The position numbers and the translations under genes were made by a program. From IMG/VR virus record IMGVR_UViG_3300045988_155182: a DNA stretch of 64,000 bases. One strand, given 5' to 3'. Source of the stretch: a virus. Lineage: Duplodnaviria; Heunggongvirae; Uroviricota; Caudoviricetes. Shown here one piece after another: positions 6,802 through 46,040 of this stretch (positions are counted from its first letter, which is position 1; each line of letters opens with the position of its first letter). The notes beneath the pieces were generated by a model. The model had not been told where the DNA came from. It was given only the letters and a program-made list of their open reading frames with translations, and ran no database searches.

Positions 6802-7452
6802 TTACGCTTTGAAAGCATCAGCCAGATAGTTATAGAAATCATTTTTAATAAAGCGATATTGCTGCGTACCAGCTTTTGCGCTTCCCATTCCTTTGACTTT
6901 CTCAACAAGTCCAAGACGTTCGCAAAGATTGATAAGCTGGTTGGCTTGAGTGTATCCTGCGTCTAATTTTATTTCGTTGGCTTTTTTCGCTTCATTCATT
7001 AAATCGAAAACAGCGCCATTTGTGAACGTCTCGATCTCGTCGTTAATCATATCGATTAATGCGAATACACGAGATCCGGACATATCAGCGACGGAATAAA
7101 CACACTTTCCAGCTTTAATGGATTTAACCAGATAAACCAGTTTTTCCAGAGAATAACTGTTAGTCATTGCATCACGGAAAAAAACTTCTGGCGCTTGTTT
7201 GCTTGCTTTGATCGCATAGTAGAAAACAGAGCATAATTTTTCGTCTTCTACAGCGTTTACAACGTTGTTGATGAAGTAAGCAAGTTTAGTGGTCGCAGCT
7301 TGCATATTTGCTTTGTCTGCTTTAGTGTGCGTACCATTTTTATAATGTTCGTTATATGTTTGAGTTGCCAGATCTGCTTTTTCGCGCAGTTCATCGGATA
7401 CAATGGAAGCAGCTTCAATGATGGATTTTTTAGAAATGATAATGTTAGCCAT
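6802..7452 (-). CDS. Hypothetical protein (216 aa), AT-rich, own transcription unit
   Basis: ORF track; AT-rich upstream region 7453-7735 and terminators on both sides. Confidence 0.55.
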   Translation of the reverse strand: MANIIISKKSIIEAASIVSDELREKADLATQTYNEHYKNGTHTKADKANMQAATTKLAYFINNVVNAVEDEKLCSVFYYAIKASKQAPEVFFRDAMTNSYSLEKLVYLVKSIKAGKCVYSVADMSGSRVFALIDMINDEIETFTNGAVFDLMNEAKKANEIKLDAGYTQANQLINLCERLGLVEKVKGMGSAKAGTQQYRFIKNDFYNYLADAFKA

Positions 7453-31902: not shown

Positions 31903-34900
31903 TTGAACATGGAACAGTTCAAGAAGAAAAAGCTACCGCTGTTTATTGCCGGTGCGGGTGGTAAAAAAAGCAGCAAAAGCTCCAGCCGTACACCTGTTGA
32001 AGCCGACGATACCGTAAATTCTCGTGCAATGGCCGCTATCCTCGATCTTCTTGGGGAAGGGGTAATTGGCGGCTTAGTAAATGGCGCAAGATCTATTTTT
32101 ATCGACGATCTGCCGATTGTAAATGAAGACGGTTCCTCCAACTTCAGCGGAATCACATGGGATTTTCGCGACGGTTCACAAGACCAGACTCCAATGTCTG
32201 GCTTTGATTTCGTTGAAACGCCTAAATCCGTCAATATCCAGTTAAAAAAAACACATTATGTAACGGTTTCAATCGATAACGATGAAGCTGATCGGGTTCG
32301 TGTCATCATGAAGTTTCCTTCTTTGCGAAGCATAGATAAAAAAACTGGTGACACGAACGGTACGACTGTTGAGTACAAGTTCCAGATAGCAAATGGCGAC
32401 TCAACATTTGTAGATGTGGTCGCTGAAGGTGAAAAAAGCGTTGGCATTAAGCTAACAGCAAAGAAGACCGGCGTTTATTACCGTAGCTATGAGCTGAAGC
32501 TGCCTAAGCCTGGACGAGCATACAAGGTTCGTGTGGTCCGTATTACCGATGATAACAGTAGCCAGTATCTCTATAACGATACATGGGTGGATTCAATCGG
32601 GGAAATTGTCGATACACCGATGAACTATCCAAACTCTGTTTTGGTTGGATTGAAGGTAAACTCTGAGCAATTCGGCAGCACCATGCCATCTCGCTCTTAT
32701 CTGGTGCGTGGCCTAAAAATTCGAGTACCTTCAAACTATAACGAGTCCAGTAACACTTACGCTGGGGTATGGGATGGCACTTTTAAGCTGTTGTCTTCTT
32801 CGAACCCCGCGTGGATTCTCTTTGATTTGCTGACCAATGCTCGATATGGCCTTGGTCAGTATGTGTCGGAATCTATGATTGACCTTGGCCAGTTGTACCA
32901 GATTGGTCGATATTGTGACGAAGAGGTCGATGATGGCTTTGGTGGCAAAGAGAAACGCTTTGCAATCAATACGCAGATCACCAGTCGACAGGACGCATAC
33001 CGGCTAATTCAGGATATTGCCGGAGCATTCCGCGGCATGGTGTTTTGGGCTGGTGGGATGGTTAACATCATGCAGGATAGCCCATCAGATCCGGTAATGA
33101 TGTTTACCAACTCTAACGTCAAAGATGGATTGTTTACCTATAAAGGTTCTGCGCGTAAAGATCGCCCATCCGTTGCGCTCGTAACCTACAACAACAAGGA
33201 GGACGGTTATAAGCAAAACATCGAGTACGTCGAAGATCAGGACGCAATGCGCCGTTATGGTGAGCGTAAAACAGAAGTCGTAGCATTTGGCTGTACAAGC
33301 CGAGGGCAGGCTCACCGAGTTGGTTTGTGGCTTTTATATACCGCCAGAATGGAGTCGGATGTAATTACATTTACTGCCGGCTTAGACGCGTCATTTCTGA
33401 TGCCTGGTGAAACCGTTCTGATTCAGAACAAATATCGCGCAGGCAAACGTAACTCAGGTCGAATTGTGGCGTTTACCAAAAACAGCGTCACACTCGATGC
33501 GCCTGTGTCGTTAGCCAAAGGCGGCTGCTTTATTCGAATACTGAATCAGGAAGGCAAAATCGTTGAACGCGATGTTCTTGAAACTGGCGAAAATATAACA
33601 AAAGTTACGTTTTCAAAAGCCCTGTCTTCGGCTGAAACGCCTGTTTTGAACGGCGTCTGGACTATTACAGAACCAGACCTCGAACCTATGCGCGTTCGCA
33701 TCGTTAACATCGCGCAGGGGGAAACGCCGGGTAGCTTTGACATCACCGCTGTTGAGAACAATCCGTCTAAATATGAGGCAATCGACAATGGTGCAACGCT
33801 GATCCCGCAGAATACGACGGTATTGGACCCAACTTACTCCAAGCCATCTAATCTGCAAATCACTGAAGGGACTTATCTCTCAAGCCCGGGCAACCTGTCA
33901 GTAAAACTGACTGCAACATGGGAAGGGAAATCTCCAGAGTATTGGATCAGTTGGCGACGTTCTGATGAAAACAATGTATCGAACTGGCAATCGGCGCGTG
34001 TAACCGAAGAGCAATACGAAATCGTTAATGTCGCGGAGAATGGACGCTACGACTTCCAGCTGTATGCGGTTTCATTCAACGGTAAAAAAACAGAGATTAT
34101 CAGTACCGTTTATCAGGTGTTGGGCACAATGACACCGCCGGATGCCCCAACGTCATTAACGGCCGTTGGAGACTATCGTAATGTGATACTGAATTGGGTT
34201 AATCCAGATTCGGTAGACCTTGATCACATTAATGTTTACGCATCCCAGACCAACAATCTGGATACGGCGAAACTGATCGCAGAGTCTGCAAGCACCACCT
34301 TTACACATGCTGGTCTTGGGGATAGCGAAACGTGGTATTACTGGGTTCGAGCATCGAACAAGCGAGGTATGTTAAGTCCTCCGAACTCAAACTTGGGTAC
34401 AGAGGCGACAACTCGCGATGTACTGTCGTTCCTGACTGGCAAAATTACATCTTCCGAGCTTGGTCAGGCTCTGCTTGAGGACATCAACAGCAAAGCCTCT
34501 CAAGAAGCAGTTGACGAGTTAAATGAGCATATCAACCAGAGCGTCGAATCTTTGGAGGGGGCGGTAAACGACGTTAAGGAAGATATAGCTGAATTAGATA
34601 AGCAGTTCAGCGATAACCTCGCGGATTTTGAAATAAAATTCAACGAGCGTAGCGATGCTTTGGAGAACGCACAAACCGAGCTTAAAGGTGAGGTTTCGGC
34701 AACGATCGACAAGGTCAATGAAGCGTTTGAAAAAATTGATGCTACTGATGCTGCAATTGTTGAAATCGAAAACACCGTATCTGAACACGATAAAGCTCTC
34801 GCTAATACAGTCGAGGCAATAAAGGCTGCAAGAGATGAAGCGGCGGCTCTTATTGCTAAGGAAAGCGAGGCTCGTGTTGAAGGCGATGCTGCAAACGCTA

Positions 34901-36636
34901 AACAACTGGAAGTGTTGCAGTCAACGGTAGAGGAAAGCTCCGCTGCCGTTGAAGAAATGAAAAAGACGGTTGCAGAGGTCGATCGTGCCAGTGCAGAACT
35001 GACTACGAACATTGAGGCGTTAGCCAAAACAAATATTGACCTGGCTCTTCGTCAAGATGAAGACCAGCACAAGCAGATGGTCAATAACGCGAAGATCGCA
35101 ACAACACAGAAAACCTTTGCTGATGATATGTCTGCAATGGCCACGAAGGTTGAGGAAATTCGCGTAGAAATTGGCGAAGACATTAAGGCCAGTATTCTGG
35201 AAGAGTCCACCGCTCGTGCCGATGGCGATGAAGCGTTGGCAAAGCGTGTCACTCAGCTGCAATCTAAGTTTGAAGGAGATATCAGCGCGGCGATTAGTAC
35301 AGAGCAGGAGGCTCGTACATCTGCCGATGAAGCTCTGACGACACAGATCACTCAGCTTGAGTCGAAAGTAAGCAACGATATCGTCGCAGCCATTAAGGAA
35401 GAGCAAGAAGCCCGAGCAACGGAAGATTCGGCTCTGGCAAGCCAGATCACCCAACTTCAGGCAAAGGTTGATGATGATATTTCTGCTGCAATACGTAGTG
35501 AGCAGGAGGCCCGAGCAAGCGGGGACTCTGCGTTAGCCAAACAAATAAACCAGCTTCAGTCAAAGGTTGACGGTGATATATCCGCTGCCATCACTCAGGA
35601 GCAGGAGGCCAGAGCAAGTGCTGACCAGGCGCTCTCACGAGAAATTAACAGCCTGCGAGCACAAACCGGAACTGATATTGCCGCAGCGGTTGCTGTAGAG
35701 ACAAAAGCAAGGACTGATGCCGATAGTGCATTGTCTACCCAGATTACGTCTCTTACAGCAAAAGCTAATGATCTCGAGGCGTCTCTTGCCAGAGAAACAA
35801 CGGCTCGTGCAGATGGTGATACCGCTTTAACAAAAGAGGTTTCAAATTTAAAAGCACAGACAGCGAAAGATATTAGTGCGGCCGTTGCAGTTGAAACGCA
35901 GGCTCGAACTGATGCTGACTCGGCGTTGTCGTCTCAGATCACCAAGCTGACCTCTCAATACAAAGAGGATATTAAAGCGGCTGTAGCAACCGAAACGAAA
36001 ACGCGTACAGAGCAAGATGCTGCATTGGCGACTCAAATCACAAACTTAGAGTCTCAAACGGCAGCCAACATTTCCGCGGCGGTAACAACTGAAACGACAG
36101 CGAGAACGCAGGCAGATAATGCTCTGAGTGGGCGAATCGATACTCTGAAAGCAGAGGTGGATGGAAATACCGCGACAATTCAACAGCAGGCAACAGCTAT
36201 TGCTGATACCAACAAAAAAGTATCAACCGCGTGGACGTTGAAAATGGAGACTTCAACGAGCGGAGGGCAGAAGTATGTTGCCGGTATTGCGCTTGGTATT
36301 GACACCACTGGGCTATCTCAGTTTTTGGTTCAGGCGGACAGGTTTGGTTTGGTCAACTCTGTTAACGGGAAGATCACAACGCCATTTGTTATCGAAAACA
36401 GTATCGCCTATATGAATGGAGCGTATATCAAGGATGGCACAATCACCAATGCAAAAGTAGGCGATCTGCAATCTACCAATTTTGTTAGCGGTAGATCTGG
36501 ATGGCGGTTCGGCAAAAATGGAACGCTTGAGATCAACGGTAATAGCGGCGGCAATGGGCGATTGGTTATAAATGGTCAGCGGATTGACGTTTATGACGAT
36601 AACAACGTCCTACGAGTAAGAATTGGCCGTCTGTGA
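31903..36636 (+). CDS. Central tail tip protein, lambda gpJ-like, with expanded coiled-coil repeat region
   Basis: N-terminal two-thirds match remembered lambda J segments (NSEQFGS, VPSNYN, IWDGTFK, FGCTSRGQAHR.GLWL, KYVAGI..G); at least nine tandem 33-aa repeats. Confidence 0.85.
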   Translation: MNMEQFKKKKLPLFIAGAGGKKSSKSSSRTPVEADDTVNSRAMAAILDLLGEGVIGGLVNGARSIFIDDLPIVNEDGSSNFSGITWDFRDGSQDQTPMSGFDFVETPKSVNIQLKKTHYVTVSIDNDEADRVRVIMKFPSLRSIDKKTGDTNGTTVEYKFQIANGDSTFVDVVAEGEKSVGIKLTAKKTGVYYRSYELKLPKPGRAYKVRVVRITDDNSSQYLYNDTWVDSIGEIVDTPMNYPNSVLVGLKVNSEQFGSTMPSRSYLVRGLKIRVPSNYNESSNTYAGVWDGTFKLLSSSNPAWILFDLLTNARYGLGQYVSESMIDLGQLYQIGRYCDEEVDDGFGGKEKRFAINTQITSRQDAYRLIQDIAGAFRGMVFWAGGMVNIMQDSPSDPVMMFTNSNVKDGLFTYKGSARKDRPSVALVTYNNKEDGYKQNIEYVEDQDAMRRYGERKTEVVAFGCTSRGQAHRVGLWLLYTARMESDVITFTAGLDASFLMPGETVLIQNKYRAGKRNSGRIVAFTKNSVTLDAPVSLAKGGCFIRILNQEGKIVERDVLETGENITKVTFSKALSSAETPVLNGVWTITEPDLEPMRVRIVNIAQGETPGSFDITAVENNPSKYEAIDNGATLIPQNTTVLDPTYSKPSNLQITEGTYLSSPGNLSVKLTATWEGKSPEYWISWRRSDENNVSNWQSARVTEEQYEIVNVAENGRYDFQLYAVSFNGKKTEIISTVYQVLGTMTPPDAPTSLTAVGDYRNVILNWVNPDSVDLDHINVYASQTNNLDTAKLIAESASTTFTHAGLGDSETWYYWVRASNKRGMLSPPNSNLGTEATTRDVLSFLTGKITSSELGQALLEDINSKASQEAVDELNEHINQSVESLEGAVNDVKEDIAELDKQFSDNLADFEIKFNERSDALENAQTELKGEVSATIDKVNEAFEKIDATDAAIVEIENTVSEHDKALANTVEAIKAARDEAAALIAKESEARVEGDAANAKQLEVLQSTVEESSAAVEEMKKTVAEVDRASAELTTNIEALAKTNIDLALRQDEDQHKQMVNNAKIATTQKTFADDMSAMATKVEEIRVEIGEDIKASILEESTARADGDEALAKRVTQLQSKFEGDISAAISTEQEARTSADEALTTQITQLESKVSNDIVAAIKEEQEARATEDSALASQITQLQAKVDDDISAAIRSEQEARASGDSALAKQINQLQSKVDGDISAAITQEQEARASADQALSREINSLRAQTGTDIAAAVAVETKARTDADSALSTQITSLTAKANDLEASLARETTARADGDTALTKEVSNLKAQTAKDISAAVAVETQARTDADSALSSQITKLTSQYKEDIKAAVATETKTRTEQDAALATQITNLESQTAANISAAVTTETTARTQADNALSGRIDTLKAEVDGNTATIQQQATAIADTNKKVSTAWTLKMETSTSGGQKYVAGIALGIDTTGLSQFLVQADRFGLVNSVNGKITTPFVIENSIAYMNGAYIKDGTITNAKVGDLQSTNFVSGRSGWRFGKNGTLEINGNSGGNGRLVINGQRIDVYDDNNVLRVRIGRL
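35170..36150 (+). repeat. Tandem 99 bp (33-aa) coiled-coil repeats inside the J-like gene
   Basis: Repeated DISAAI..EQEARASADSAL..QITQLQSKVDG units in the translation. Confidence 0.7.
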
Positions 36637-36729: not shown

Positions 36730-39700
36730 ATGTGGTACAGGGAAGGTACTATCACATTTACACAGGGTAGCAATACTCTGGTTGGGGCAGGGACAGCCTG
36801 GAACGTAACAGCTAATGGTGTGTTGCCGGGGATGATCGTCATTGGCCCCGACAATAAGCTGTATGAGATCAAGCGCGTAATAAGCGATACGAATATTGTT
36901 CTCTCAGAACCTTATACCGGCGAAACTCAGTCTGAGGTTCCGTGCCGAATCATTACGACCTATGAAGGCGACTTAACACAGTTTAGCGCGCGCTTTACTG
37001 CGCTAATGTCGCGTATGTCGGCTGATTCCAAGTCCATGCGCAGTTGGTTGACTGCGCTGGATGAGGTGACAATCGAGCGTGAAGACGGTACAGAAGTAAC
37101 CGTTAAGCCGCTAATGCAGATCGTCAACGAGCACAACGAAAACGTTGAGTGGTATAAAAATAACACTGACGCGATTGATGCTGCTGGCGACAAAGCTCGT
37201 GAGGCGGCGGCCAGTGCTGCCGCAGCAGCAGAAAGCGCCAATACCGCTGGAGAAAAAGCCTCTCAAGCGTCTCAAAGTGCATCCGCTGCGGCATCCTCAC
37301 AAAGTGCCGCAAGTGCGAGTGCAACTGCTGCGAAAAAATCTGAAACGAATGCCGCAGCGTCACAACAATCAGCAGCCACTTCTGCATCCACCGCGACCAC
37401 GAAAGCGTCAGAAGCTGCCACCTCAGCCCGGGATGCGGCGGCCTCAAAAGAGGCAGCGAAATCATCAGAAACGAACGCATCCTTGAGCGCCAGTAGCGCA
37501 GCTTCCTCGGCAACGGCGGCAGGAAATTCCGCGAAGGCGGCAAAAACGTCCGAGACGAACGCCAGGTCTTCTGAGACGGCAGCGGGACAGAGCGCCTCAG
37601 CTGCGGCAGGCTCAAAAACAGCGGCTGCGTCGTCTGCCAGTGCCGCGTCAACAAGTGCCGGGCAGGCCTCAGCCAGTGCCACCGCCGCCGGAAAATCGGC
37701 AGAAAGTGCCGCATCGTCTGCTTCAACAGCCACAACGAAGGCTGGCGAAGCCACTGAACAGGCCAGCGCAGCAGCGAGGTCTGCTTCCGCAGCGAAGACA
37801 TCCGAAACGAACGCGAAAGCGTCGGAAACCAGCGCAGAATCCTCAAAAACGGCTGCCGCATCGTCCGCCAGTTCGGCGGCGTCATCGGCATCATCTGCGT
37901 CTGCTTCAAAAGATGAGGCGACCAGACAGGCGTCAGCAGCGAAGGGCAGTGCCACGACGGCATCCACGAAAGCAACAGAGGCGGCAGGCAGTGCGACGGC
38001 AGCATCTCAGAGCAAAACTGCTGCTGAATCCGCTGCGACCCGTGCGGAAGCTGCTGCTGATCGTGCTGAAGAGATTGCCGGTGCAGTTGCGATGGAAGAC
38101 GCAAGCCTTACAACTAAAGGTGTTGTGAAACTTAGCAGTGCTGTTGATAGCACCAGTGAATCGCTGGCCGCAACGCCAAAAGCAGTTAAAGCAGCCAATG
38201 ACAATGCGAATAGCAGGGTGCCATCTAACCGAAAAGTTAACGGAAAAGCACTGACTGCGGATATAACATTAACGCCGAAAGATATTGGTACTTTAAATTC
38301 AGTAACGATGTCTTTCTCTGGCGGGGCTGGGTGGTTCAAACTGGCTACGGTTACCATGCCACAAGCGAGTTCCATCGTTTACATCGCATTGATTGGTGGC
38401 GCTGGTTACAACGTCGGTTCCCCACATCAGGCAGGCATTTCAGAACTGGTTCTACGAGCAGGCAATGGAAACCCCAAAGGAATTACCGGGGCTTTGTGGA
38501 AGCGTACAGCCGTCGGATTAACGAATTTCGCCTGGATCAACACATCCGGCGATACATATGATATTTACGTTGAGATTGGCAATTATGCGACTCGTGTAAA
38601 TATCCATTGGGATTGTACTGCAAATGCGACAGTTTCTATTTATACATCGCCAACATATTCAGCGAGTAAGCCTTCCAGCGTTACCGATGGTGTTGTTTAT
38701 ACGATGTATAGCTCACATCAGAAACCGACGCCGTTAGATATTGGAGCACTGCCAACAACCGGAGGAACAGTTTCAGGTCCGTTGTCTGTTACAGGTGGAT
38801 TAACTGGTTCATTGAATGGTAATGCAAGTACAGCCACGAAATTGCAGACGGCAAGATCTATCGGTGGAGTTGTTTTCGACGGTTCTGCAAATATTAACCT
38901 TCCAGGTGTAAACACTACGGGTAATCAGAACACCACTGGTAATGCTGCAACTGCTACAAAACTTCAGACGGCAAGAACTATCGGCGGCGTGAGCTTTGAT
39001 GGTACTGCGAATATTAATTTGCCAGGTGTTAATACGACTGGTAATCAGAACACAACGGGCAACGCGGCTACTGCTACGAAGTTGCAGACTGCGCGTACTA
39101 TCAATGGGGTGTCGTTTGACGGCTCGGCAAATATTGCCTTGTCGCCAGCAAATATAGGTTGCCCGGCATCTCCTACTGGTTGGCTTGTAACAGGTGATAA
39201 TGGAGCTTCAATAACAACAGAGCAATTAGTGACTCTGCTACGAGATAATGGTGCTTTTAGTGTAAAGGCATGGATAGCGCGTTGTGCCTGGGCGTATGCA
39301 AATAGTGCATCCATACCAGACAGCGAAACAGGATGCGGCATTATTCCACTGGCTGGCGCAGTTATTGAGGTATTTAATAAAGGCAGTAGCTCAAACAATT
39401 ATACGATTCGTATAACAACGGCAACAACGACAGGTGTCTCTGGCGCACTCACTAATGCGGAGTTTGTCTATGTGTTTAATGGGACGACCTATTCACCAGG
39501 ATGGCGCAGAGCGTATAACACTAAAAACAAGCCTACTGCGGCTGATGTCGGAGCTTTACCACTATCTGGAGGGGCGTTAACTGGCGGATTAACTGCTGCT
39601 GGCGAGATAATTTCCAAATCGGCGAATGGTCTGCGCATTGCCTACGGAAACTACGGATTCTTTATCCGAAATGATGGATTGGACACATATTTCATGCTAA

Positions 39701-41181
39701 CAGCATCAGGAGACACATTAGGTTCATGGAACGGTTTGCGACCTATTACAATTAATAATACCAGCGGTTCTGTGTCCATTCGTAATGGACTCAATGTTAC
39801 TGGCGGCATCAATGGTAGTTTGAACGGTAATGCTGCAACTGCAACAAAACTGCAAACAGCACGCACAATAGGCGGAGTGTCATTCGATGGCTCCGCCAAT
39901 ATCAACCTGCCGGGTGTAAACATTGCTGGTAACCAGAACACTACCGGTAATGCAGCGACAGCGACCAAGTTGCAGACAGCATGTACTATCAACGGCGTCT
40001 CGTTTGATGGTTCTAAAGATATTGAACTTAACCCACGGTCTATAGGCACGATCAACTCCACAACAATGTCATTCAGCGGTGGTGCTGGTTGGTTCAAATT
40101 AGCAACGGTAACCATGCCACAGGCGAGTTCTGTTGTTTCAATTACGTTGATTGGTGGCTCGGGATTTAACGTGGGGTCACCTCAACAGGCAGGTATATCT
40201 GAACTTGTTTTGCGTGCAGGTAATGGTAATCCGAAGGGGATTACTGGTGCTTTATGGCAGCGCACATCGACAGGGTTTACAAATTTTGCCTGGGTCAATA
40301 CATCTGGTGATACTTACGATATTTACGTTGCAATCGGAAATTATGCGTGGCGTGTAAATATTCAATGGGATTATACCAGTAATGCCAGCGTGACGATTCA
40401 TACGTCACCAGCATATTCTGCTAATAAGCCGGAAGGGTTAACGGACGGTACAGTTTATTCACTCTATACGCCATCAGAGCAGTTTTATCCGCCTGGCGCA
40501 CCAATCCCGTGGCCATCAGATACCGTTCCGTCTGGTTATGCCCTGATGCAGGGGCAGACTTTTGACAAATCTGCCTACCCGAAACTTGCAGCCGCTTATC
40601 CGTCAGGCGTGATCCCTGATATGCGTGGCTGGACGATTAAGGGCAAACCCGCCAGTGGTCGTGCCGTATTGTCTCAGGAACAGGACGGCATTAAATCGCA
40701 CACCCACAGCGCCAGCGCATCCAGTACGGATTTGGGGACGAAAACCACATCGTCGTTTGATTACGGAACCAAATCCACGAATAACACCGGGGCGCATACC
40801 CATAGTATTAGCGGGACTGCAAATAGTGCAGGTGGGCACCAACACCATAGTTCTGGACCATATGCGAATTCTAATGATGGTGATCTCTTTCCTAACGGTT
40901 ATACCCAGGTTTCAGCCACAAACAAACCAGTTGTACCACGGCAAGGTGGCCAAGGTATGGCCCGTTTATCAGGGAAAACATCATCAGATGGAGCACATAC
41001 CCACTCGTTATCCGGTAGTGCCGCAAGCGCAGGTGCTCACGCACACACTGTTGGTATTGGTGCTCATACGCACTCCGTTGCGATTGGTTCACATGGACAC
41101 ACCATCACCGTTAACGCTGCTGGTAACGCGGAAAACACCGTCAAAAACATCGCATTTAACTATATTGTGAGGCTTGCATGA
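36730..41181 (+). CDS. Side tail fibre protein (Stf-like) with Ala/Ser-rich KTSETNA-type repeats, internal duplications and His-rich C-terminal tip
   Basis: [13 protein letters not shown] repeats; repeated [52 protein letters not shown] units; GAHTHS motifs near the C-terminus. Confidence 0.85.
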
Positions 41182-41978
41182 TTACGCTCATTCTTTCTGC
41201 ACCAGTAACAGAAATGGCTGAAGCATTTAAGCGGGTATTTGCAAACGCAGATAATGTGAATATTGTCGGAAAGCCATTTGAAACAATCAGAGAATTTGAC
41301 TGCATGGTAAGTGCGGCAAATAGTTTCGGCCTGATGGATGGCGGCGTTGATGCCGCCATTACCGCATTCTTCGGTACTCAGTTACAGTCCCGCGTTCAGA
41401 ATCATATTCTTCGTGAATATCTAGGCGAGCAGCCTGTAGGTTCTGCATTTGTTATTGAAACGGGGCATAATCATCACCCCTGGCTGGTACATGCGCCAAC
41501 AATGCGTGTTCCGCTGACAATTGACGGAACAGACTCTGTATATAACGCAACCTGGGCCGCTTTACTTGCCATCTTTCAGCACAATAAAAACGCAACGACA
41601 GACAGGAAAATAAAGACGGTGGTATTCCCTGCAATGGGGGCCGGATGTGGTCAGGTTCCGTTTGAAAGCGTTGCCCGGCAGATGAAGCAGGCGTGGGATA
41701 ACTTTAATAAAAAAACAGAAGCAATTAACTGGGAATATGCACAATCTCGCCAGTCGGCAGTATTTAGCACATATGCATACTGTCCAGGTAATTCTGTTTG
41801 CCGTTATGCGGATACTAAATATATTGGCTGTGGCGATTCCCGGACGTATTGCTCACGTTCAGGGCAGATCTGTATTAACCCTGAACATCAGGCTGATGAT
41901 GTACTGATACAACATCAGGCTAATAACCGGTTTCGCCCTGGTTCGCATATACACCGGATTAATCCGGAAAATACCTGA
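41178..41978 (+). CDS. Macro-domain protein (ADP-ribose binding/hydrolase fold) with Cys-rich C-terminal tail
   Basis: [18 protein letters not shown] and [22 protein letters not shown] correspond to the two macro-domain signature segments (NAAN..L.GGGGV..AI and FP.ISTGIYG.P). Confidence 0.7.
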
Positions 41979-42082
41979 GGCAATATCGCCACTGGCGCAT
42001 ATAATCACGGAAGGGGCATCACTGTTGGTGCTCACACCCATACACTCAATAAACAACATACTGTCTTTGATATTAAGTAGAG

Positions 42083-42670
42083 GTGAACATGGACTTCACA
42101 ATGAGTGAACAACCACGGACCATAAAAATTTATAATCTGTTGGCCGGAACCAATGAATTTATTGGTGAAGGTGATGCATATATTCCACCTCATACGGGGC
42201 TGCCAGCTTATTCTACGGATATAGCGCCACCGGATGTACCTGCTGGCTTCGTGGCCGTATTCAACAGCGAAAATAAATCATGGAGTCTCGTTGAAGACCA
42301 CAGGGGTAAAACGGTCTATGACGTGGAATCAGGGGACGCGTTGTTTATTTCTGAACTTGGGCCATTACCGGAAAATGTCACCTGGTTATCACCGGATGGG
42401 GAATATCAGAAGTGGGACGGCACATCCTGGGAGAAGGATGAGGAAACAGAAAAATTGTTTCAGGTACGGGAAGCGGAAGAAACAAAAAAAAGTCTGATGC
42501 AGGTAGCCAGCGAGCACATTGCGCCACTTCAGGATGCTGTAGATTTGGAGATTGCAACGGAGGAAGAAGCATCGTTGCTGACTGCATGGAAGAAGTATAG
42601 AGTTTTATTGAACCGCATTGACACATCAACGGCACCGGATATTGACTGGCCAACAATACCAGCAGAGTAA
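42083..42670 (+). CDS. Tail fibre assembly protein (Tfa)
   Basis: Size and C-terminal W.KYR.LLNRID....DWP..P pattern typical of lambda-type Tfa. Confidence 0.75.
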
Positions 42671-42718
42671 GGGGCAGATTATATCTGCATTATTAACAAC
42701 GATTAGTTTGCAAGATAT

Positions 42719-42742
42719 ATAGTAGGTAAGTACATACCTACT
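42719..42742. repeat. TAGTAGGTAAGTACATACCTACTA palindrome
   Basis: Seen directly. Confidence 0.5.
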
Positions 42743-42791
42743 ACAAATGGTTAAAATATGATATAAACACGCCATCCCGATTTGACTTTTC

Positions 42792-43127
42792 ATGGAGGAA
42801 AACATGTCGAACGAGATGGCGGGAGTCACAACTGAACAGGTTGAGCGCATCGCCTCAATCGTTGCTCGGGAAGTCGTAGGCAAATTAGGTAAAGAAATAC
42901 GCGAGGAAATTGGCCAGGAGGTCAACGACCAGCTCAAAACCTACTTTGGCGATATGACGCCTTCGCAACACAGCATTCAGCACTCCAACCTGGACAAACT
43001 ACTTAATCGGCTAGACGCCATCTCCAGCGGGTTCTTTGGCGGCATTATCTCAAAGATAACGTCGTTCCTGATTACCGCGCTGCTGCTGGGTCTGGCCGCT
43101 TATGGCGTGAAGAATGGACTGCAATAA
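42792..43127 (+). CDS. Membrane protein with single C-terminal TM, possible holin
   Basis: First gene of the apparent lysis cassette; hydrophobic ITSFLITALLLGLAAYGV. Confidence 0.35.
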   Translation: MEENMSNEMAGVTTEQVERIASIVAREVVGKLGKEIREEIGQEVNDQLKTYFGDMTPSQHSIQHSNLDKLLNRLDAISSGFFGGIISKITSFLITALLLGLAAYGVKNGLQ

Positions 43128-43140
43128 CAGGAGATCAAGG

Positions 43141-43833
43141 ATGAAAACTCCGAGAGGCATTCGTAATAACAACCCTGGCAACCTCGACAAAGGTTCGCCG
43201 TGGCAGGGGCTAATCGACAACCCTGCCGAACCGCGCTTTTGCACGTTTAAAGACCCTGTTTGGGGGATTCGTGCGCTGGCGGTGACTCTAATTACCTACC
43301 ACGATAAACGTCGCGCAAAAGACGGCACAAGTATCGATACCATTCGTGAAGTTATTGAACGCTGGGCACCGCCGAATGAAAACAATACTGACGCCTACAT
43401 TAATGAGGTGTCTAAAGCCGTTGGTGTAACCGCAGACATGATCATCGATCTGCATGATTACGACATCCTTCGACCTTTGGTTGAGGCAATCATTCGCCAT
43501 GAGAATGGGCGAGGTCCGCTAAAAACGCTGAACACCTGGTATGCGGCAGAAGTTATTGAGGAAGGTCTGCGTCGAGCTGGCGTCGTTAAGCCGGTGAAAA
43601 CCGTGAAGGCTGTTCCTGTAACTAAAGAAACCGCAGGCGCAACTGTCACAGCAGGTATTGGTCTGGCGCAGCTGGCCGATGTTATGCCGCAGGTTTCCGC
43701 TGCTATGGATAAAGCACAAGGTCATATCTCTAGCGGGGATACAGTACGCATCATCTTCGGCATTGCCACTATTTTTGTGGCCGGATTCATTGCCTGGTCG
43801 CAGGTAAGAAGACACCAGAAAGGGATGGTCTAA
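43141..43833 (+). CDS. Putative endolysin/cell-wall hydrolase (family not recognised) with C-terminal TM segment
   Basis: ORF track 43114..43833; ATG at 43141 behind AGGAG; position directly upstream of the spanin pair. Confidence 0.4.
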   Translation: MKTPRGIRNNNPGNLDKGSPWQGLIDNPAEPRFCTFKDPVWGIRALAVTLITYHDKRRAKDGTSIDTIREVIERWAPPNENNTDAYINEVSKAVGVTADMIIDLHDYDILRPLVEAIIRHENGRGPLKTLNTWYAAEVIEEGLRRAGVVKPVKTVKAVPVTKETAGATVTAGIGLAQLADVMPQVSAAMDKAQGHISSGDTVRIIFGIATIFVAGFIAWSQVRRHQKGMV

Positions 43834-43834
43834 T

Positions 43835-44086
43835 ATGCTAGGCAGCCTGATGACAAAGCTAAAAGTTGCTTTGATTACGCTGGCTGCCGTTCTTTTCGTT
43901 CTGGTCGGCGCTTACACGATGGGCGGAAATGCGGCGCGACGAGCAATGGAAGAGAAGGCAAAACAGGAAGACAGGAAACGACTTCAAAACACAGTGAAAG
44001 TGGTGAATGAGACGAGCAGTAAAATACGTCAGAAAGATGCTTCTGCCGTTCATCGTGAGTTGTATGATAAGTGGGTGCGTCATTAA
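43835..44086 (+). CDS. i-spanin (Rz-like): N-terminal TM plus charged coiled-coil
   Basis: LKVALITLAAVLFVLVGAY TM followed by K/E/R-rich segment. Confidence 0.6.
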   Translation: MLGSLMTKLKVALITLAAVLFVLVGAYTMGGNAARRAMEEKAKQEDRKRLQNTVKVVNETSSKIRQKDASAVHRELYDKWVRH

Positions 44087-44254: not shown

Positions 44255-44776
44255 TTATTCTTCGAACAATTTTTCGATAGATTTTGTAGGATAGAACAAA
44301 GAACGCTCGTTGTTACCAACCAGCTGGATAAAGCCTAAACTTTTATAAAACGCCTTGGCTTTGTCATTTAACGCCTCAACGAAAAGTCCATGAATGCCTA
44401 CAGCAAGAGATGCATTGTACACAACGCGCATTGCATGTGTTACAAGCATTGAGCCAAATCCTTGACCTTGAAGGGACTTGTCCAAAGCCAGCCTACCCAA
44501 AGTAACACTTGGAACATTCCGATAAGGAACCTTCTTTTGTTTGCTTCTTGAAGGTAAGGACTCCTTTTCAAAACAACTACCTGACAAAGTGTAATATCCT
44601 AACACTTTTGGCCTTTCTTCTTGAGTGCAAAGCACATAAGCACGAAGAATTTTTCCCTCATGCTGCCTTTTTAAGTGGTTGGCTAAAAAGGCGTTTAGTG
44701 ACTCTTCGCCGCAATCAAAACCGTTTAGATCATAATCTTTCTCTCCAGAGAAAATCTCTATCGTTGTATTGCTCAC
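44255..44776 (-). CDS. GNAT-family acetyltransferase toxin (TacT/AtaT/KacT-like)
   Basis: GNAT motif RLALDKSLQGQGFG; about 170 aa; paired with upstream RHH gene. Confidence 0.75.
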   Translation of the reverse strand: MSNTTIEIFSGEKDYDLNGFDCGEESLNAFLANHLKRQHEGKILRAYVLCTQEERPKVLGYYTLSGSCFEKESLPSRSKQKKVPYRNVPSVTLGRLALDKSLQGQGFGSMLVTHAMRVVYNASLAVGIHGLFVEALNDKAKAFYKSLGFIQLVGNNERSLFYPTKSIEKLFEE

Positions 44777-44783
44777 GAGTAAA

Positions 44784-45053
44784 CTACTCCATGCTTTTCA
44801 GACGATCAGCAGCTCGTTTCAGCTTGTCGTTCGGTGCCGGAGGATTGCTTATAGCGTCCATAACCAGATTCCAGGATTCTTCATTCAGAACTAGTCTACG
44901 GTGTTGCTCTATAACTTTCACGGCACGTTCAGATGCACTGCTAACCATAAACTGAGTAATGCTCTGGTTAGACATTGCGGCAGCTTCCTCGATGATGCTT
45001 TTATCGTCATCGGTTAATCTCAAATCGATGCGCTGCTTTTTTAGTGCTGACAT
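44784..45053 (-). CDS. RHH antitoxin (TacA/DUF1778-like) of the GNAT toxin
   Basis: ORF track 44784..45092; small protein immediately upstream of and co-directional with the GNAT gene. Confidence 0.7.
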   Translation of the reverse strand: MSALKKQRIDLRLTDDDKSIIEEAAAMSNQSITQFMVSSASERAVKVIEQHRRLVLNEESWNLVMDAISNPPAPNDKLKRAADRLKSME

Positions 45054-45319
45054 GTATTCCTCCTGATGGCCGTGATGTAGGAAGGCCATCAATCTCCTCT
45101 GTTCAAACTGAGTTTTCGACTCAAAAATTACTTTAAAAGGCTATAGCCCATTACGTGTGCATTATCAAATTGTGTACGGCATAACACCGTACTTGTAATA
45201 TAGAGGTCATTGTTACTTTTTTCAACAGACAAATACAAGCTATGATTGCCAATTGTTAATCACAACCTACCATTTAACCTTTACACCGCAGCCGTAGGCA
45301 TTTAGGCTATATCACATAT

Positions 45320-45371: not shown

Positions 45372-46040
45372 ATGACCAAGATCTTTGTGGTTGGCGGCAC
45401 AAAGGGCGGGCCTGGCAAATCCACCGTTGCCCAGCAAATTGCCGTTTGCCTGAAAGTCAAAAAGAAGAAGAAGGTTTATATTACCGATATAGATATTCAG
45501 CGCACGACAACGAGCTGGTGTGAAGACCGTCGACAGAACGAAGACCTTGAGCTGATTCCTTTTGCATACGTTCAGGATGACATCATTAAGCACCTAAAAT
45601 CGCTTCAGGGTAGAGCTGAGTTTGTAGTGGTAGATGCTGGTGGCTTCGACTCCGAAATTCAGCGACAAGCGATGCTGATGGCCGACGTTATCATTATCCC
45701 GCTTCGTCCTAAGCGTCGTGATTTGAAATCTCTGCGTGATATCGATCCTATTATCGACAATGTTCGTAATGTAAACGATAAAGTGAAGGTCCGCGCGGTC
45801 ATGAACCAGTGTCCGGCTTTGCCATCACAAGTGTCTCGCATTCTGGCGGCTAAAGAGATTGTTGAGACGTTTGGCATCGAGTCTGCGCCAGTCAATCTAT
45901 ATAACCGCAACGTCTATGATGATGCGGAAGAGTCTGGTCGTTCTATCTTTGAAATGACCGGTAGCGAGCGCGACAAAAAGGCGGAAGCCGAGTTTGAAGA
46001 ATTTGTAGATTATCTGTTGAGTCTGGAGGAAAAAGAATAA
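45372..46040 (+). CDS. parA: ParA partition ATPase (deviant Walker A)
   Basis: VVGGTKGGPGKST deviant Walker A typical of ParA/MinD/Soj. Confidence 0.8.
   Translation: MTKIFVVGGTKGGPGKSTVAQQIAVCLKVKKKKKVYITDIDIQRTTTSWCEDRRQNEDLELIPFAYVQDDIIKHLKSLQGRAEFVVVDAGGFDSEIQRQAMLMADVIIIPLRPKRRDLKSLRDIDPIIDNVRNVNDKVKVRAVMNQCPALPSQVSRILAAKEIVETFGIESAPVNLYNRNVYDDAEESGRSIFEMTGSERDKKAEAEFEEFVDYLLSLEEKE

Follow-up and report, generated by a model that had tools for sequence, protein, structure and literature searches.

A macrodomain gene inserted between the side tail fibre and tail fibre assembly genes of an SSU5-like phage-plasmid and its nonsense-truncated allele

Why does a gene for a macrodomain protein stand between the side tail fibre gene (stf) and the tail fibre assembly gene (tfa) of a tailed phage, and what is encoded by the open frame that continues behind its stop codon? 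Both questions are raised by the Caudoviricetes record IMGVR_UViG_3300045988_155182 of IMG/VR, from which a stretch of 64,000 nucleotides (nt), hereafter called the window, was analysed. The replicon is an SSU5-like phage-plasmid that is most closely related, among complete replicons, to the 110-kb plasmid pTB212. In a preliminary description of the window, the 33 codons behind the macro gene were considered to be the remnant of a displaced tail fibre tip, and an activity against DarT-like defences was proposed. The analysis presented here identifies the 33 codons as the severed C-terminus of the macrodomain protein itself. The gene, including its truncated allele of 266 amino acids (aa), is best explained as an accessory cargo macrodomain enzyme of the family phrog_2613 that is expressed late and most likely serves in counter-defence, a reading to which a probability of about 0.55 is assigned.

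The macrodomain and its C-terminal extension

The Pfam profile Macro (PF01661) matches residues 44-169 of the predicted protein with a score of 68.8 bits (cut-off 22 bits; E 5.2e-19). Both signature segments that the preliminary description had recognised in the open reading frame (ORF) are indeed present, the first as N48-x6-G55-G56-V57-D58 at nt 41319-41351 and the second as G154-A-G-C-G158 at nt 41637-41651, and a third conserved segment, H105-APTMR, is found at 41490-41507. In 73 phage homologues, and likewise in the cellular homologues, the residues N48, D54-D58, H105-x-P-T-x-R, G154, G156 and G158 do not vary. An AlphaFold2 model based on 73 sequences (mean predicted local distance difference test score, pLDDT, of 71; a model based on 19 sequences with a pLDDT of 59 was discarded as too poor) exhibits the three-layer alpha/beta/alpha macro fold, with a pLDDT of 85-95 over most of the domain. 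Yeast Ymx7/YMR087W (1NJR) ranks first in a profile search of the PDB (E 1.4e-6) as well as in a Foldseek search (E 3e-9). Ymx7, an ADP-ribose-1''-phosphate phosphatase, is the member through which the Macro2 clade has been studied (PMC6397177). It shares only 21% identity with the phage protein, whose activity is predicted from sequence, and it is a eukaryotic housekeeping enzyme without a C-terminal Cys/His extension. The N-x6-GG-V-D motif, the glycine loop and the good match to PF01661 are common to the MacroD-type proteins (Oceanobacillus iheyensis MacroD, Escherichia coli YmdB, human MacroD1/2, Thermus thermophilus TTHA0132). N48 and D58 correspond in alignments to N30 and D40 of MacroD from Oceanobacillus; the equivalence of these catalytic residues is based on the alignments and on the availability of MacroD structures with the mutations N30A and D40A. 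The phrog_2613 profile matches the 300-aa form of the protein with E 3e-143 and its sister macrodomains with E 1e-84 to 1e-96; the family is already annotated under this name and, at NCBI, as “macro domain-containing protein.” Between the E. coli 300-aa and 289-aa types, the ratio of nonsynonymous to synonymous substitution rates (dN/dS) is 0.11-0.13 for the macrodomain.

Behind the TGA codon at 41976-41978, a further 33 codons (41979-42077) can be read in the same frame before a TAG at 42078-42080, as had been described before. In the two closest protein clusters, one of which is P0002, the gene encodes 300 aa, which equals the 266 residues of the window protein, one further codon and the 33 codons downstream. 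On the DNA level, pTB212 and two other relatives (L008, L090) carry GGA at the position of the window's TGA and show no other difference downstream of aa 196; the TGA is a single G-to-T change from the Gly267 codon. Given the sense codon and the 300-aa ORF of the relatives, the 33 codons therefore represent the macro family's own C-terminus. Among 80 homologues on viral contigs, the macro ORF is open to within 30 nt of tfa in 77, the ORF lengths being 300 aa (25 loci), 296 aa (7), 289 aa (6), 280 aa (5), 274 aa (30) and a few others, and only two or three of the ORFs are broken. A sequencing error at the TGA was rejected, as the exact 266-aa allele exists on 20 public contigs, and a programmed read-through that would yield two isoforms is unlikely because the intact alleles carry a sense codon. 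The 266-aa protein keeps the macrodomain, the four cysteines described below, the HQADD motif and the first GSHIH motif, which is everything that it has in common with the 269-274-aa Salmonella proteins and their one or two HxH motifs. Judged from these retained elements, the truncated product is probably a working enzyme. For annotation, the case illustrates that an apparent “leftover” frame can be the severed end of a neighboring gene.

The part of the protein that is shared family-wide comprises the macrodomain, aa 1-195. To this, the fibre-linked clade of enterobacterial prophages adds the segment A-Y-C-P-x4-C...Y-I-G-x-G-x3-T-x-C-x3-G-x2-C-I-x3-H-Q-x-D-D, in which C202, C208, C225 and C232 are invariant or nearly so. 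Within this cysteine module a beta-hairpin (aa 211-225) is predicted by AlphaFold2 with moderate confidence, and the C-terminal extension probably binds metal. The module is followed by a variable tail with one to five G-A/S-H-x-H motifs per family member. HxH motifs occur on average 2.2 times per tail among 130 distinct members, compared to 0.05 expected from composition, which corresponds to a 40-fold enrichment. The motifs of the window are GSHIH, the degenerate GAYNH and, intact, GAHTH; the last two are located past the TGA. In the AlphaFold2 monomer, aa 240-300 are unstructured and the pLDDT of the tail lies below 50. For the pair of E. coli types compared above, dN/dS is 0.23-0.26 in the cysteine module and 0.29-0.32 in the tail, and the latter value, of about 0.3, identifies the tail as constrained coding sequence and not as debris.

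The tail motifs have the same form and a similar spacing as the HxH needle repeats (PF03335) in the fibre tips of lambda Stf and T4 gp37, whereas the macro tail carries only one to five of them and is attached to an enzyme, not to a fibre shaft. The likeness between the 33-codon peptide and the fibre tip that the preliminary description had pointed out is real at the level of this motif: a pairwise BLASTP comparison of the window's macro tail with the window's fibre tip yields E 0.002. A search for direct repeats, which bears on a displaced fibre tip or a duplicated fibre segment as the source of the peptide, gave only short matches of the GGTGCTCA type, and these candidates were rejected, also because the macro ORF of relatives includes the codons. 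The profile PF03335 is matched at E 0.76-0.88 in two relatives and has no match in the window type. In one family member, P0333, the tail FDYGTKITNTTGAHTHTIT is 63% identical over 30 aa to the window fibre at 40756-40845 (E 3e-10). Family tails therefore do draw on fibre-tip sequence, and the fibre-like tail may go back to a capture of fibre sequence that was either ancient or recurrent.

A function of the combined Cys4 and HxH module as a portable docking domain on other enzymes was considered and rejected, since tblastn searches against phages and a profile search of 5.8 billion proteins recovered it only from this macro family, where most of the matches were fragments of broken copies. Co-variation of tail and Tfa was likewise rejected: homologues from Erwinia and Izhakiella combine near-identical Tfa N-termini with very different tails, which argues against a tight coupling of the two. 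The tail is thus fibre-like, rich in metal ligands and constrained, yet variable, dispensable in sister proteins and truncated in the window without apparent penalty. It could serve oligomerisation or an association with Tfa or the fibre. Alternatively, it could largely be an incidental product of recombination with the fibre repeats next to it, its frame being kept for termination near tfa. A fibre-like, putatively metal-binding tail on an enzyme is an unusual architecture.

A different Cys/His-rich C-terminal module (GCDCGCGWG plus four or five HxH motifs) was observed in Izhakiella australiensis, where one genome contains three paralogous 300-aa macro genes (L012, L013, L014). The macro parts of these paralogues differ with a synonymous divergence (dS) of 0.2-0.4, while their tails are nearly identical (dS 0.1 or less).

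Insertion, distribution and mobility of the cassette

In lambda and in phage ev099, stf and tfa abut (GAGGCTTGCATAATGGCATTCAGAATGAGT). Alignment of the window with these two phages shows that about 900 nt have been added exactly between the stop codon of stf and the start codon of tfa, which supports the insertion postulated in the preliminary description. The ancestral Shine-Dalgarno sequence now serves the ATG of the macro gene, which overlaps with the TGA stop codon of stf (ATGA). For tfa, a new one (GAGGTGA) is provided by the last part of the insert, where the macro reading frame has its 3' end. Whether stf and tfa are contiguous elsewhere, a check proposed along with the insertion, can be answered for 5,426 complete E. 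coli genomes: 3,923 of them contain the contiguous junction, at 7,149 places in total, whereas the macro-bearing junction is present in 128 genomes at 131 places, or about 1.8% of the lambda-type junctions. A sequence scan revealed no promoter-like or terminator-like signal between stf, the macro gene and tfa, promoter-like sites being fewer than in shuffled sequence, and a moron with its own promoter or terminator was rejected on these grounds.

The fibre-linked clade is found in Gifsy-1 (STM2588.1n), SEN4/SEN5, Chuche and prophages of Erwinia, Izhakiella, Citrobacter and Enterobacter, always behind a fibre that ends with NYIVRLA and ahead of a Tfa that starts with MxFxMS. The order fibre, macro, Tfa was found at ten of ten loci checked, and the fibre side at all 80 viral loci; Gifsy-1, SEN5 and Chuche are among these loci. 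STM2588.1n of Gifsy-1, gp19 of SEN4/SEN5 and CDS0053 of Chuche share family, position and the architecture of macrodomain, Cys4 module and HxH tail with the window gene; they are full length (274-289 aa), whereas the window copy is cut at codon 267. The macro stop codon is situated between -11 and +30 nt from the ATG of tfa in 68 of 68 loci; in the window the distance is 110 nt. In some database records the macro protein is called “phage tail protein.”

Sister macrodomains with about 60% identity, all of them members of phrog_2613, occupy several slots in phage genomes. Some are located just upstream of holin and endolysin genes, one is situated between ParB-N/methyltransferase genes and the terminase gene, and another within an early array of small genes. 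Others share the fibre-tfa junction, such as a tail-less protein of 203 aa in a Mu-like phage and a protein of 218 aa with a single VGAHTH in a P2-like phage. A further sister (P0324, 216 aa, with a C-terminal GDHDH) was observed in a myovirus baseplate cluster (L189:3001-3651), between a Pam3 gp18-like and an E217 gp41-like gene. On a prophage contig from SRR13893658, an 82-aa protein with the Acb2/Tad1 hairpin (Pfam E 8e-17; L193:3680-3925) is encoded directly 3' of the 202-aa sister P0332, and this pair upstream of the holin and endolysin genes is a possible anti-defence islet. In Chloroflexota, Acidobacteriota, Cyanobacteria and others, cellular homologues (about 200 aa, about 50% identity) exist as stand-alone proteins and do not contain the C-terminal extension. 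Their genomic neighborhood was considered as a hint to a pathway and discarded, as clustering of the neighbors at 70 loci gave nothing consistent.

Comparison with pTB212 and with a second plasmid-prophage background (L171) reveals a fine-scale mosaic. All 903 nt from the macro ATG to the TAG, including the TGA, are identical in the window and in L171; in a comparison over 40178-42900 only the block listed in Table 1 is identical, and the fibre tip (40800-41020) and tfa diverge. Versus pTB212 (L007; compared over 40500-43900), identity amounts to about 100% for 41700-42900, 91-99% for the 5' part of the macro gene, 69-85% for the fibre tip and 75-89% beyond 42900. Recombination breakpoints are located both within the macro gene and at its borders. 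The extreme end of the tail changes by single-base indels. Decay of the gene is also found. At the run of five G residues in the glycine loop, the plasmids pLAO18 and pYY76-1-1 have six and seven, respectively, which causes a frameshift in the macro gene, and three Escherichia fergusonii plasmids with the same match length of 914 nt and no coding sequence listed presumably carry one as well. These length variants could reflect either slippage-prone inactivation or homopolymer sequencing errors. In Salmonella, many macro copies are split, leaving ORFs for C-terminal fragments.

Function and competing explanations

The N-terminal 195 residues make up a macrodomain of the Ymx7/Macro2-like kind, whose Asn-Asp-His and double glycine-loop active site is intact. 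The domain is predicted to bind and hydrolyse an ADP-ribose derivative, which could be ADP-ribose-1''-phosphate, a small molecule based on ADP-ribose or an ADP-ribosyl adduct. As the gene has neither a promoter nor a terminator of its own, its product would be co-expressed with the late tail proteins by translational coupling. Its most likely role lies in the cytoplasm, where it would reverse or remove an ADP-ribose-based attack or signal of the host and thereby act in counter-defence. This role is proposed because sister proteins are found in accessory and anti-defence slots, because the active site is strongly constrained and because there is precedent for ADP-ribose erasers in phages: the macrodomain enzyme AdfM (PMC13309987) and the NADAR enzyme AdfN (PMC11825919) are proven counter-defence proteins. 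The Ymx7-like subclass hints, by analogy, at a small-molecule ADP-ribose derivative as the substrate rather than DNA modified by DarT. The C-terminal extension may provide oligomerisation or an association with Tfa or the fibre without being indispensable, and the G-to-T change at Gly267 removes only the last 33 residues, which are variable. The conserved flanks, namely the fibre end and the Tfa start MTFKMSE, would allow homologous recombination to move the cassette of roughly 0.9 kb and to exchange it among lambdoid, P2-like, Mu-like and plasmid prophages.

Several points weigh against this reading. The Pfam profile Macro_2 (PF14519) scores 23.9 bits for the window protein, below its cut-off of 27, and 19.5-22.7 bits for relatives, so that the assignment to the Macro2 subclass rests on the ranking of structures. 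Ymx7, the only characterised enzyme of the Macro2 type, was reported to lack activity in removing mono-ADP-ribose (PMC6397177). A search with the DarG models of PADLOC gave no hit for P0002, the window type, and E 0.008 for one Salmonella member, and an hhalign comparison with AdfM yielded a probability of 1.5%; no relationship to DarG or AdfM beyond the fold was thus detected, and membership in a known defence or antitoxin family was rejected. Compared to the anti-DarT factors AdfM (PhiKZ gp104), DarG2 and AdfN (NADAR), the window protein belongs to a different macro clade, and its gene resides in a late tail operon, not in an early region. The preliminary idea of a DarT counter is plausible as a class of function, whereas the domain itself resembles Ymx7/Macro2 and not DarG or AdfM. 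Late co-expression with tail genes is an odd timing for a counter-defence enzyme. The frameshifted plasmids and the Salmonella fragments indicate that the gene is dispensable, at least in prophages, and the conserved Cys4 module and 40-fold HxH enrichment suggest a function of the tail beyond a purely cytoplasmic enzyme. Finally, a literature search recovered no biochemical or genetic data on any member of phrog_2613.

Phage ADP-ribose erasers such as AdfM and AdfN have only recently been shown to act in counter-defence, and phrog_2613 represents a different, Ymx7-like macrodomain that is widespread in enterobacterial prophages, with the 128 E. coli genomes mentioned above, Gifsy-1, many other Salmonella prophages and phage-plasmids. 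If its members neutralise an ADP-ribose-based defence or signal, an abundant family would be added to the known anti-defence proteins, for which Gifsy-1, SEN5 and Chuche offer easy genetic systems. The macro gene resides in a host-range cassette and is therefore exchanged together with fibre tips. Under the counter-defence reading, host-range switching would thus be linked to the carriage of a counter-defence gene.

Two competing explanations retain some weight, each being considered unlikely. According to the first, the HxH tail, aided by Tfa, trimerises the macrodomain or docks it on the tip of Stf, which would create a virion enzyme for assembly or for the cell surface. The strict order of fibre, macro gene and Tfa with its overlapping stop and start codons, the fibre-needle form and enrichment of the HxH motifs, the homology of the P0333 tail to the window's fibre tip, the constraint on the tail, the sister with a C-terminal DHDH inside a Pam3/E217-type baseplate cluster and the records named “phage tail protein” are all consistent with this view. 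Tail-less sisters of 203 aa, however, exist in the same fibre-tfa slot and other sisters in non-structural regions, while the tail itself varies between one and five motifs, shifts its end by single-base indels, is predicted to be disordered in the monomer and has no significant match to the Pfam fibre repeat. Moreover, the truncated allele persists and has spread, and the Tfa encoded in the window is of the ordinary lambda type. To our knowledge, there is no ADP-ribose substrate outside the cell. More doubtful still is virion display in the strict sense, in which a tail folded by Tfa would anchor a macrodomain trimer at the fibre tip or build a mini-fibre; if true, this would be the first macrodomain enzyme borne on a tail fibre, and enzymatic cargo would have a docking site in the stf-tfa slot.

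The second explanation, for which the odds are similarly low, regards the gene as selfish or lysogen-benefiting cargo that spreads via easily recombining flanks and benefits host nicotinamide adenine dinucleotide (NAD)/ADP-ribose metabolism or regulation, not lytic growth, the tail being a by-product. The gene has no promoter of its own for expression in lysogens, purifying selection is strong both for the domain (dN/dS 0.11-0.13) and for the cysteine module (0.23-0.26), and the HxH enrichment and the invariance of the four cysteines exceed what is needed to keep a frame open. These objections are set against the minority occurrence at the junction (about 1.8%), the fine-scale mosaicism, the invariable placement of the macro stop codon within 30 nt of the tfa ATG (68 of 68 loci), the frequent broken copies and the housekeeping-like, stand-alone cellular homologues without conserved neighbors.

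That the nonsense codon marks a functionless pseudogene in this replicon appears improbable. The premature stop does remove 34 codons and lies 110 nt from tfa, and frameshifts in the G5 run were verified in two plasmids and inferred for three more. Nevertheless, the 266-aa product keeps every element that is conserved family-wide and has about the length of the Salmonella proteins, no further change relative to intact alleles has accumulated downstream of the stop, and the exact allele occurs on 20 contigs and in two backgrounds. The original proposal that the 33 codons are a vestige of the fibre C-terminus, displaced when the macro gene was inserted, is to be abandoned as very improbable: the motif-level resemblance and the position immediately upstream of tfa speak for it, whereas these codons belong to the macro ORF of the closest relatives and of nearly all homologues and are under purifying selection, the upstream fibre is complete up to its canonical C-terminal end, and a sequence of this kind is missing from the stf-tfa junction of lambda.

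Layout of the locus and neighboring genes

The coordinates of the fibre, macro and tfa region are summarized in Table 1. Seven HxH motifs are found within the last 160 residues of Stf.

Table 1. Features of the stf-macro-tfa region in the window.
Feature	Position	Strand	Remarks
Side tail fibre gene Stf, 1483 aa	36730..41181	+	Lambda-type C-terminal tip, collar domain
Block 100% identical (TGA included) in second plasmid-prophage background	41053..42112	+	
Macrodomain ORF as present in window, 266 aa	41178..41978	+	Nonsense-truncated allele of 300-aa protein
Macro domain core, Pfam aa 44-169	41307..41684	+	Motifs invariant in family
G5 run within glycine loop (AMGAGCG)	41636..41640	+	
Cysteine-rich module (C202, C208, C225, C232)	41781..41873	+	
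HQxDD motif and first G-S-H-I-H motif	41886..41954	+	Last family-wide conserved elements
TGA nonsense codon	41976..41978	+	GGA (Gly267) in pTB212, L008, L088, L089, L090
Cut-off macro C-terminal tail, 33 codons and TAG	41979..42080	+	TAG at 42078-42080
Tail fibre assembly gene tfa, 193 aa	42089..42670	+	Caudo_TAP E 4e-44; phrog_105

The stf gene contains a 120-nt tandem repeat with 2.2-2.5 copies (38829-39135) and a module of roughly 200 aa that is present twice, indicating that the fibre was lengthened by internal duplication. Upstream, a gpJ-like tail tip protein of 1577 aa (31903-36636) exhibits a long run of roughly 33-residue repeats rich in Ala, Glu and Gln with the pattern ..DISAAI..EQEAR...D.AL..QI.QLQSKV.., which looks like an extended coiled coil placed before the C-terminal domain.

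The genes at 44255-45092 on the minus strand and 45372-46040 on the plus strand, directly 3' of the tail module, encode a GNAT acetyltransferase toxin with an antitoxin of the TacA/DUF1778 type and, after this pair, a ParA-like partition ATPase. Toxin-antitoxin and partition genes are typical for the maintenance of plasmid prophages. Between tfa and these genes, three small ORFs (111, 239 and 83 aa; 42792-44086) with hydrophobic segments are located, and the two of them that were scanned gave no Pfam match. The 239-aa ORF carries an IRNNNPGN motif, and the three ORFs together may constitute a lysis or membrane module.

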